Shown one piece after another: positions 34,955-53,190 of a stretch of 64,000 bases of DNA. Every line of letters begins with the position of its first letter. Position 1 is the first letter of the stretch. The notes beneath the pieces are model-generated. The model made no database searches, was not told the DNA's origin, and saw nothing but the letters and a program-made list of their open reading frames with translations. The stretch is from NCBI GenBank assembly GCA_951406725.2, contig OX597822.1, positions 8,246,001-8,310,000 of the forward strand. The letters are read 5' to 3'. Source of the DNA: Octopus vulgaris. Taxonomy: Eukaryota. Position numbers and translations under genes: made by a program.

Positions 34955-35152
34955 GATCGTTAGCCACTACACACATTTTTCTCTCCTATTTTTCTTTCCT
35001 TTTTTTTTCTCTCCTTGTTTTTTCTGTGTCCCTTTCTGTAGAAGAGCGTATGCTCGAAACGTAAAAGACTTTTTTCTATTCCTGAACGTTATACTAATAC
35101 ATCTGTTTGTTTTGTACACCACCTGTCTTTGTCTTTTGTTTTTTTCGTAAAC
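34955..35152 (+). repeat. Short dispersed repeat (family H) carrying a hammerhead-like motif, copy 1
   Basis: Homologous to the reverse complements of 42872-43050 and 52990-53190; next to (TC)n/(TA)n. Confidence 0.85.
35032..35067 (+). ncRNA. Minimal type-I hammerhead ribozyme-like motif, non-canonical core
   Basis: cttt CTGTAGA a gagc gtat gctc GAAA cg TA aaag: stem I, core, stem II, palindromic stem III, GUA triplet. Confidence 0.6.
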
Positions 35153-35937
35153 TCTCTCTCTCTCTCTCTCTCTCTCTCTCTCTCTCTTTATATATATATA
35201 TATATATATATATATATATATATATGACAAGATCTAAATAAATTTGGCTTACGGCTTTTTCCAGTAGTCTTTAAAGCTACGCTACTGATAGGTTTACTTA
35301 GTGGTCTATTGATCAGCTGAGAAAATTCGAACGACATGAAAAAAAGAAAATATCAATGCTACTTTCGTCAGAGCCACTTCTGGTAATAGCAAACCAGAAC
35401 ACCAAAGGAATATACGTGTATGGGGAAGGAAAAAAATAGGGCAAATGATACGTAGAATAGAGAAAAGCGGAAGACATGTAGCAAGAAGGTGAAGAGAAAG
35501 AACGAAAAAACAGAAGAACAGAAGAAATACTTACTTAATAGAAGGAGGGAGGATAGTATTGTCAAAATGTTGGAAAGGGACAGTCATAAATCTTTAGTGT
35601 TTGCAGTCAGGTCAACACATGAAAATATTTGATTTGTGTTTAGATTAGATATACTCCAAATATGTTGAAATTTGATATGGGCCATTTACACACATGGACA
35701 AATTAAGTCCTTCATATATGGACGCTGATGTTATCAGGTATAGTAAGGGAATACATACAAACATACATACATGTGCGCGTGAATGTGTGTGTGTGTGTGT
35801 GTGTTATGTAAGTGCATTTCACAACTATACACACAAACACACTTATATACATACATATATATATATATATATATATATATATATATATATATATATATAT
35901 ATGTATATATATATATGTATATGTATATGTATATATA

Positions 35938-38900
35938 TCCTTAAATCCTTAAAAATTGTTTTAGCCCGAAGGCCGCGACCATGCTGGGGCACCACCGCTG
36001 AATGAGCTACACTAATATGTGAATCCACCTCTGATACGTGGCACTTGATCAACAAGGGAATTCAATGCTGCTGCCCGCATCTGCGTCTCCTGTCGTGAGG
36101 TAGGTTCATTTGGGACTCCCGACAAGAAGAGATCCAGTTTAGTTTTAAAGAAACCCACATCCACACCATGTAAGTCTCTCAGGCATTTAGGGAGGATGTT
36201 AAAGAGCTGTGGTCCTCTGAAACCCAAGCTGTTGCAGTATCTGGACCTGTATTTTGATGGTGATGTTGGAATCTTTGGCACCATGTAGTGGCGCCCTGTT
36301 CTGCGGTTAGGGTAACTTTGAATGACAAAGTTTGGGACAAGACCCTCCAGGATTATCCAGATGTATATCACCGCATATCTCTCCCGCCTCCGCTCTAGGG
36401 AGAAGAGGTTTAATAATTTCAGTCTTTCCCAGTAGCTGATATTTTGCATTGAGACTATCTTCTTTGTGTAGAATCTCTGAATTGCTTCGAGTTCTGCTGT
36501 TAGTTTTATATTGTGTGGTGACCATAGTTGGGAGCAGTAGTCCAAGCGGCTGAGGACGAATGCTTTCCAGAGGACCATCAGTGTCTCCTTCTCTCTTGTT
36601 CTGAAAGTTCGGAGAATCCATCCAGCTACCCGTCTGCATTTTATCACCAGATTAGTAATATGCACTCGGAAAGATGCATCATTGCTCATGTCAATGCCCA
36701 GGTCACGCACTGATTTTGACTCAGGGATTGCAATTATTCCTGGGCCAGTGTATCCAGTCTGCACGTCGTTTACCTTTGTGTGCCGGTAGCGCAGGGCCTG
36801 GACCTTACCTGCATTAAACTGCATGTTGTTGTCCTCAGCCCACCTGTATATTGTATCCAACTTCTGTTGCAGTTGCGCAATATTTTCAGTGTTTTGTATT
36901 GTGTGGGAGACTTTTGTGTCATCTGCATAGCTAGCAAGGGTAGCCATCGTAGCAACTGAAGGCATGTCTGAAAGGGCCATTATAAGCAGCAGTGGCTCCA
37001 AGACAGTGCCCTGTGGAACACCGCTTGTTATTTGTTTCCTTGGAGGTGGCTCCTTTGCTTTCAACTGCCTGTCTTCTGTCTTTTAGGAAGTTGTGCAGCC
37101 ACTCTCCAAGTTTTCCGCCTATGCCGAGACCACGCAGTTTCTGACAGATCATACCATGGTCGACTTTATCAATGGCTTTTGCAAAGTCGAGATATATTAC
37201 ATTCACATTTGAGCCATTTAGTAGCTGTTTTAACACCCAGTCATACTGTTGCAGGAGCTGTGTTAGGCAGCTTCTACCTGGTCGAAATCCCTGCTGGGTG
37301 TCAGACAGCAAGTCATTTTCTTCAAGGAACATGATTAGTTTCTTGCGGACTATTCGTTCCATGACTTTGCTGATGTGTGAGGTCAGAGAGATAGGCCTAT
37401 AATTTTTAGCATCTGCTCTGCTACCTCCCTTATGGATAGGGCATATTACCCCCTCTTTCAATTTGACTGGGAGCTTACCACTTGCAAGAAAGCTCTGAAA
37501 AAGAAGCTGTAGCGGTTTTGCAAGGGCCCGTTTGCACGAATTGAGAAGGATCGCTGGAAATCCATCAGGTCCAGCAGCTGAGTTTGTGTCAATGTCATCT
37601 ATGGCGAGTGTGATATAATCATCTTCAATGTTGATGTACTCAATTTTTGCCTCTTTGGCCGCAGGTAAAGTGGCAAAGAATTCTTCTGGGTTGTTTACTT
37701 GCATGTGTCCTAGAGGTGTAGTGAACACACTTTAGAATTGTTCGTTCAGTATTTCACTTATCCTCGTGCGATTTCCTGTGAGAGAGCCATCTTTTTGGAA
37801 GAGAGGTCTTATTCTCTGGTGCACTGTAACTGTCTCTTTGGCAAACTTAAAGGAAGCTTTAGTGTTTGATTTTATATTTTCTATTACCCAAGCTTCTTTA
37901 TCTGCACTCTCCTTTTCATGGGACGATGCAGACTTTTCTCAATTTCCAATAGCATTCTCTCGAGCCGAGACTTCTCACCACATTTGGTGTGCTTGCTCAG
38001 GCGGTTCACAATCCTTGTCCGTCGTCTCATAAGGATCTTCCTTTCTCTAGGGATCCTGTTTTTGTTTTTGCGTGTGCTGGCCCTGCACACAGGGACATAT
38101 TTGTCACATATGGCTTGTATTATGGACATGATGTGTTTGTGTTTCATGTTAATGTCCGGTGTGGAGAGACATTTAGGTCAATCCTGTTTAAGGATCTCTT
38201 TCTCAATCAACTTCCAGTTTGCTTTATGAAAGTTTAAGTTGGAGAGATGGTGGATGCTTCGTATAGGCTGTGTGTCTACGGGGGCTTTTGGTCCATACAT
38301 AGACAGCTCTATTATGTTGTGATCCGAGATCATTGTCGGCATCACTTTAACATTATGGATAATATATTGTTTGTGAAGCAGAGATCCAGTATATTATCAG
38401 TCCTTGTTGGTTGCAGAATTATTTGCTCCATGAAAGAGGCATTTGTGAGATGGAGCAGGGACTCTGCCTGTGCCTGCTGATGGTGCGTCATCCCTGAGAG
38501 CATCTGCCCCCAAGGCCATTCCACATTGGGGAAGTTAAAGTCACCCATGAAGAATACACTGTTTTGTTGTTCAAGGTTGGTGAGGACTTCTATTTTTGTT
38601 AGGCAGTCTTCAAACATGCCTGAGTGATTTGGGGCATCTGGTGGGCGATATGTAGTACATATGACAATATTCAGTTGTCTTATGTGTACAATTTGAGTGT
38701 CATATACTGAGTTTGAATATGACAACAGGACCTGGGGCGTGAGGTCATCTCGGATGTACATTGCAACTCCACCATGGCTCTTTCCTTTTCTATCTGAGCG
38801 TAAGACTGCATATTGCGGCATGTGTATTTCTGCATCTCCTATATCGGGTCCAAGATGAGTTTCTGTGAGTGTCATGCATATAGCTTGATTGCATGTCACA

Positions 38901-39009
38901 AGGTCTCTCAGGAATGGGATTTTCCTTTTACAGTTTCCGCGCAGCAGCCCTCCTACGTTCAGTAGAAATATTTTTGTGGTGTGTGTGTTGCTGTTGGTGT
39001 TGGTGCACC
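35938..39009 (-). mobile_element. CR1/L2-group LINE, ORF2 (APE + RT) region, frameshifted, apparently lacking ORF1
   Basis: LTETHL, GGVAMY, YRPP, GDFN, LDLCF (APE); GPDGFP, NYRPISLTS, QQGFRPGRSC, YLDFAKAIDKVDH, GVPQG, YADDTK, YWERLKLLNLFSLERRR (RT); short 3' UTR ending in TTAAGGA-type repeats; TA-rich flanks. Confidence 0.95.
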
Positions 39010-52194: not shown

Positions 52195-52815
52195 AACAAC
52201 AAACAAGATGAGGACAAATTACTGTCAAACGTAAATAATGTAAATAATGTGCATAATTCCGCATCTCTTAAATATAGAAATGTATTCCTCTACTTTCCGT
52301 AGCATCTTCGGGTCAAAATCTTTCGATATTATACGACTACTTTAGCGTCTCTCATTGACTCCCACTCTCACTTTTTCTATTGTTTTACCCTATGGTAATC
52401 TCCTGTCTGTTCCCAACATCATAAGTGAAAGGCACTTGTGTATTATTGGACATTAGTGGGAAGCTAATCAAGAGATCAGAAGTGATCTACTACAATATGT
52501 GCTACAGCATGGCCATACTGAAACAGGTCATCCGAACACAAGGGATATAGACACTTGATGCCTCCCAGAAGATCTCCCTCAATTAATGCACAACAGAAAT
52601 TGCAGCTTAGGAATGTCCGGGCAAGTCCGATCACATGATGATATAGTTTGGACCAACAAAAATTCATCATCCACGTAAAGAAAGATATTTAGTACAGAGT
52701 ACTTGAAAAATAGTTAAAATTAGTTTCATATAGTAGAGATTCAAGTGTTTGACAAATATATAAAGTATCATGCGTCTCCATGAAAATCTTTGAGGTTCAT
52801 TGAAAACTATTAGAT

Positions 52816-52945
52816 ACTAACATTATAACACGGCTTTGCCCGGGATTAAGTTAGGATTATTGAGGTACTCAAGTTCTTTATTTCAAACCAAACTAACATC
52901 GACATCAAATTTGGACGATGTCCGTTGAAATTGGCTTATATATAT
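52816..52945 (-). mobile_element. Possible decayed Helitron-like fragment
   Basis: actaacattataacacggctttgcccggg resembles the actagcagtatcgcccggcgttgctcggg terminus at 32698; other end runs into (TA)n. Confidence 0.35.
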
Positions 52946-52989
52946 ATATATATATATATATATATATATATATATATATATATATATAT

Positions 52990-53190
52990 AAGGGAAAGTT
53001 TACGAAAATAAACATAAGATGAAGGCAGGTGGAGTACAAACAAACAAATGTATTAGTATAGCACTGAGGAATAGAAATAGAAAATGTGTTTTACGTTTCG
53101 AGCCTACGCTCTTCGACAGAAAGATACACAGAAAAAAACAAGGAGAAAAACAAGGAAAAATGCGTGTTGGAGCTAACGATCTAACATGGC
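52990..53190 (-). repeat. Family H repeat, copy 3 (hammerhead-like motif 53086-53129)
   Basis: Minus strand cttt CTGTCGA a gagc gtag gctc GAAA cg TA aaac; (TA)n on both sides. Confidence 0.85.

Follow-up and report, generated by a model that had tools for sequence, protein, structure and literature searches.

A 64,000-nucleotide stretch of the Octopus vulgaris genome (hereafter the window) holds three copies of a dispersed repeat built around what looks like a minimal hammerhead ribozyme, with a uridine at position 6 of the core where the canonical CUGA turn has an adenosine. What kind of element carries this motif, and can a hammerhead altered in this way still cut? The sequence-only reading of the window had proposed a non-coding mobile unit, either solo Penelope terminal repeats or retrozyme-like, moved by the machinery of two Penelope-like element (PLE) remnants in the window, and had taken U6 for a family trait rather than random decay. 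We followed these proposals through the whole genome (2.8 Gb, 227 contigs).

Results

All three copies and their shared core were confirmed (Table 1). Their common part is a 36-nt block, present in 3/3 copies and embedded in a looser repeat of ~190 bp, which reads CTTT-CYGTMGA-A-GAGC(GTAK)GCTC-GAAA-CG-TA-AAA with T at position 6 in each. Every copy also carries one private decay: the loop GTAT in copy 1, U4C in copy 2 and a broken last stem I pair in copy 3. The arrangement, set out for copy 1 as PLE hammerheads are described in PMC4209133, is that of the minimal type-I Penelope hammerhead, as had been suggested. A chance match is excluded by 10,539 exact matches in the genome against 0 for a reversed control pattern. 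The expectation that standard hammerhead searches would miss the motif agrees with an Rfam scan (E<=5), in which no hammerhead family appeared among the 150 of 179 matches listed; these were microsatellite-driven miRNA matches only.

Table 1. Repeat copies in the window and the predicted parts of their hammerheads (positions within the window).
Feature	Positions	Strand	Remarks
pLTR copy 1	34955-35152	+	5'-truncated, SF5-type subfamily, N7=A
pLTR copy 2	42872-43060	-	SF3-type subfamily, N7=C, private U4C
pLTR copy 3	52990-53190	-	SF6-type subfamily, N7=C, then (TA)n
Copy 1 minimal hammerhead	35032-35067	+	
Copy 1 stem I, 5' strand	35032-35035		
Copy 1 core, C3 to A9	35036-35042		U6 = 35039
Copy 1 extra A	35043		
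Copy 1 stem-loop II	35044-35055		
Copy 1 GAAA	35056-35059		
Copy 1 A17	35063		preceded by CG-U; predicted cut 3' of A17
Copy 1 stem I, 3' strand	35064-35067		
Copy 2 minimal hammerhead	42958-42993	-	C3 42989, U6 42986, A17 42962
Copy 3 minimal hammerhead	53088-53123	-	C3 53119, U6 53116, A17 53092

Judged by their genomic matches, the three copies are solo, 5'-truncated 3' terminal repeats (pLTRs) of an autonomous Neptune-type PLE, which bears out the first of the two identities proposed. The 30 best genome matches have a 3' end fixed at (TA)n and a variable 5' extent; at 84 places picked by their flank the median length was 187 nt and a TA-type microsatellite followed in 77, most copies keeping only the last ~190 bp. 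At loci L004/L031 and L015/L032 the repeat runs 5' via a pyrimidine-rich UTR into frames for a reverse transcriptase (RT), a C-x4-C-x2-C linker and a GIY-YIG-type endonuclease (EN). Units of the form pLTR-RT/GIY-YIG-pLTR were seen in 4 of 20 long loci picked by RT similarity, with the motif and U6 in both repeats and a spacing of 4,231-4,384 bp; here the motif flanks a Penelope ORF, a link that the sequence-only reading had suggested looking for. The full unit of ~4.3 kb is pLTR-ORF(RT, CxxxxCxxC linker, GIY-YIG)-pLTR, inserted into (TA)n, and the repeat is the terminus of an ORF-bearing element rather than a non-coding mobile unit. No single intact ORF was found among the 20 long loci, where the longest open frames span 844 and 818 aa. 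With a thumb-endonuclease frame as query, 146 longer homologues were retrieved at <=53% identity; most carry an RVT_1 annotation and some a GIY-YIG annotation in addition, and the family's frames show DKG, YIDD and a GIY-YIG-type region. Pfam returned RVT_1 on L348 at E=0.0019, weaker than the curated cut-off, and no match on two partial frames of the family, GIY-YIG being called on homologues only.

These features place the family among EN+ PLEs (an ORF with RT and C-terminal GIY-YIG, flanking direct repeats, and a fixed 3' end with ragged 5' truncation). The Neptune-type label is one of layout, not of a tree separating Neptune from Nematis: the linker lies within CX2-5CxxC ahead of the C-terminal EN, and (TA)n is targeted. 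The two PLE remnants reported near 50200 and 62590 do exist, but lie at 50710-50856(-) and 62984-63706(-), and they are not the family's mobiliser, which is its own ORF. They represent other PLE families, since the family's endonuclease region matches the second only, at 25% identity. Another stretch, 37186-37605(-), is a decayed retroelement remnant that matches the N-terminal part of one homologue and is probably a LINE-type endonuclease.

Genome-wide, the exact U6 motifs stand against 472 with another base at position 6, the first 100 of which comprise 71 C, 20 A and 9 G. Copies can also be reached through a 17-mer of the 3' flank, which has 23,957 genome matches; the 85 places sampled in this way yielded 65 distinct copies with an ungapped motif, 18 without the motif and 2 duplicates. 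Of the 65 copies, 61 have U at position 6, 3 have A and 1 has C, and U6 held across all eight subfamily consensi described below, which upholds the claim of a family trait. The family does not, in other words, have the A6 of the CUGA turn that characterises PLE minimal hammerheads. By comparison with relatives U6 is the derived state, because metagenome matches with the same stem II carry A6 in 89/89 cases. Canonical minimal cores also occur in the genome itself, 14,669 in all, and among them is a sister family that shares the stem II. Old-type matches were already mostly U6 (81 U, 13 C and 6 A in the first 100 of 607), and within the oldest subfamily A6 and C6 copies fall scattered among U6 copies, with no supported clade to mark the A6-to-U6 step; these copies may reflect decay or unresolved sub-lineages. 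Three old U6 copies (L214, L215 and L221) have an altered stem-loop II, with a UUCG loop and a U-U mismatch in two of them, which suggests minor early sub-lineages.

A tree built from the flanks only arranged 148 of the 173 collected copies (short, sister-family and aberrant ones dropped) into a ladder of eight subfamilies. Divergence of copies from their own subfamily consensus is ~3-14%, and flank divergence between consensi is 7-35%. Across the eight consensi, 34/36 motif sites are invariant compared with 76/143 flank sites (p=1.7e-6 by Fisher's test, p=5e-5 by permutation); the sequence-only reading was right that the motif is better conserved than its surroundings. The two variable motif sites are N7 (four changes) and H17 (one change, A to U, with a second U17 group seen among the copies). 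These are the positions that hammerheads leave free, and two variable sites falling at random would be this very pair with a probability of 1/630. Invariant are C3, U4, G5, G8, A9, the extra nucleotide 9.1, G12, A13, A14 and A15.1-U16.1, H17 being A or U, and stem II with G10.1-C11.1, the short stem I and the palindromic stem III are complementary in all subfamilies. Many copies had been chosen by the motif, which biases the rate test; the flank-picked counts agree with its result, as does a repeat on flank-picked copies (33/36 against 57/121, p=7e-7), which is partly independent in that string-match membership admitted some motif-picked copies. On this comparative evidence the motif is strongly constrained in the master lineage, where N7 and H17 alone are free.

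Between families the two strands of stem I covary: they are CUUU/AAAG in the U6 family, GUUU/AAAC in its sister family and GCU/AGC among the metagenome relatives. No such covariation was seen inside the U6 lineage. Loop II, GUAG, which is normally free, is fixed across subfamilies as well. Because of this fixed loop and the absence of covariation within the U6 lineage, part of the constraint may be non-catalytic. About 55 nt downstream, in the pLTR 3' flank, a 13-nt block (for example at 35120-35140(+)) is likewise invariant across subfamilies, having also served as an anchor for copy selection. It is complementary to the stem I 3' strand and could, as a downstream helix, compete with the catalytic fold. 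Neither for this pairing nor for a candidate pseudoknot of loop II was the complementarity accompanied by covariation, and both ideas were set aside.

In monomer folds the probability of stem I was 0.3 or less in 9/9 natural copies tried, and that of stem II was 0.01-0.67. Copies spanning the predicted cut made up 70/83 of a flank-picked set, in which two of the longest extents are self-matches, and therefore the usual template was uncut RNA. Within this set 37 copies start 51-92 nt upstream of C3 and 1/83 starts at the cut, giving no clear spike of 5' ends there. In 32 distinct loci, 2 begin exactly at the cut and 4 more one base inside it, counts that are confounded by TA microhomology. Tandem arrays of ~190 bp were not found: of the 247 distinct motif copies, 16 have a neighbour on the same strand, and none of these is nearer than 281 bp.

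The sister pLTR family (loop II TCC; L423-L452) has 12,217 exact matches; 74 of the first 100 carry U4C, and 3/45 copies, which form one old group, have a non-cleavable G17. It is known here from its pLTRs. That it has largely fixed U4C points the same way as the U6 family: changes in the turn do not stop amplification. Remnants of its pLTR lie in the window at 51305-51450(-) and 62404-62510(+), and in the first a deletion bounded by short direct repeats has removed the entire hammerhead; we considered whether this deleted form was itself amplified and rejected the idea, with 1 other full-span match among the 40 scored. A separate small repeat (L233, L353-L372; around 1500) has a hammerhead-like CUGUUGA core with U6 in 25/26 copies, a mismatched stem II and G17; several degenerate half-cores occur alongside it, and no PLE protein match was found in its 3-kb loci. 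A large (AAT)n-associated family (L095-L122), in which stem II is 5 bp long, retains the canonical CUGA core and offers a ready assay control.

Discussion

Our preferred reading, to which we give a probability of about 0.5, is that the A6U minimal hammerhead is a weakened ribozyme that likely still cuts slowly after GUH, probably only as a dimer or assisted by the protein of the element. Reverse transcription would start near the pLTR-ORF junction and copy back through the pLTR, and a slow core may be tolerated or even favoured because fast cleavage would shorten the template. The fold and the catalytic G8 and G12 would then be retained for late or assisted processing of tandem transcripts. 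PLE minimal hammerheads cleave weakly and only as multimers (PMC4209133), and that of a lizard PLE cleaves only with its protein, in an element that begins reverse transcription internally, close to where pLTR and ORF meet (PMC11167929). A natural A6C hammerhead has low but detectable activity (PMC3088659; PMC7151607). Several observations count against a weakened ribozyme: the missing spike of 5' ends, the absence of covariation within the U6 lineage, the fixed loop II, the low monomer probability of stem I and the G17 group of the sister family.

An alternative that we consider somewhat unlikely is that the motif has ceased to cleave, and that its hammerhead fold and ACGU palindrome persist as an element that binds protein or dimerises RNA and that transposition requires. 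Mostly uncut templates, the fixed loop II, the U4C fixed by the sister lineage and its old G17 group all fit such an element, as do the low activity of CUGA-region mutants, which second changes do not rescue (PMC9901934), and the finding that catalytic mutants of the lizard hammerhead still insert in vitro (PMC11167929). It sits poorly with the retention of C3, G5, G8 and G12, and with freedom at N7 and H17 only, H17 having gone to U and not to G in the U6 lineage. A related and broader proposal is that changes of the uridine turn (A6U and U4C) became fixed independently in two of the Penelope lineages that have been most successful in this genome, with the rest frozen, because the motif has been adapted into an RNA element, gated by protein or not cutting at all, on which transposition depends. 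We advance it tentatively, at short of even odds; were it true, these lineages would be a natural experiment on what Penelope hammerheads are for. It is improbable that the U6 ribozyme is near-fully active through compensation, either by a contact of the fixed GUAG loop II with an upstream CUAC/CUGC or by a metal preference. The loop is invariant, CTRC occurs upstream in 79/106 copies of SF5-SF8, and A6C shifts ion preference to Mn2+ (PMC7151607), but the upstream 4-mer is missing from the SF2 and SF3 consensus and expected by chance, and copies starting at the cut are not in excess.

Two further readings can largely be set aside. Naiad PLEs thrive without canonical hammerheads (PMC8557442), so it is conceivable that the motif is a dead relic which the pLTR carries along passively; a motif this invariant despite flank divergence of up to 35% makes that very improbable and largely refutes it. 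The retrozyme-like alternative, a non-autonomous unit replicating as circular RNA, has in its favour the unit size of ~190 bp and a proposed derivation of retrozymes from pLTRs (bioRxiv 10.64898/2026.07.22.740005). We hold it barely credible and reject it, as the expected tandem arrays are absent among the 247 distinct motif copies and the ragged 5' ends continue into the RT-EN ORF to which the repeat is joined.

The role of hammerheads in PLEs is an open question, as they cut poorly in vitro (PMC4209133) and are dispensable for insertion in one reconstituted system (PMC11167929). The octopus family adds a case in which purifying selection bearing the hammerhead signature acts on a core expected from mutagenesis to be crippled, and its canonical relatives with the same stem II provide natural, matched controls for cleavage assays. 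In this genome a search based on CUGA passes over at least 10,539 motifs and most of the sister family's 12,217, compared with 14,669 canonical motifs. Lunse et al. 2017 is reportedly the most extensive survey of hammerheads in PLEs. Outside that survey and part of the supplement of PMC4209133, our literature search returned no fixed A6U core, and the word 'ribozyme' is absent from the main text of the octopus repeat paper. Hammerheads in pLTRs are already known and the element is ordinary; the fixed A6U core is the new part, as far as the literature search reached.

Compared with the Neptune clade of EN+ PLEs (Craig et al. 2021, PMC8557442), the octopus family shares the C-terminal GIY-YIG, the CX2-5CxxC linker, pLTRs, (TA)n targets, partial tandems and inverted neighbours, and differs in its non-canonical hammerhead core. 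Non-LTR retrozymes (bioRxiv 10.64898/2026.07.22.740005; PMC7229834) likewise have a short hammerhead-bearing repeat related to pLTRs, whereas the octopus repeat lacks tandem arrays and is continuous with an RT-EN ORF. The minimal hammerheads of PLE pLTRs (Cervera & De la Pena 2014, PMC4209133) agree in lying in both pLTRs, in the extra nucleotide between 9 and 10.1, in G10.1-C11.1, in the palindromic CG at 15.2/16.2, in the short stem I and in the prevalence of solo copies from truncated elements. The core change reported for them in the text covered is U3-A8, and the representatives in the part of figure S3 covered are all A6, in contrast to U6 in >10,000 octopus copies. The nearest parallel at position 6, the A6C hammerhead of phage Bcep176 (PMC3088659; PMC7151607), is also a natural change with the rest of the core intact. 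That case, however, is a C in a single phage ribozyme, whereas the octopus U6 is lineage-wide in an animal retrotransposon.
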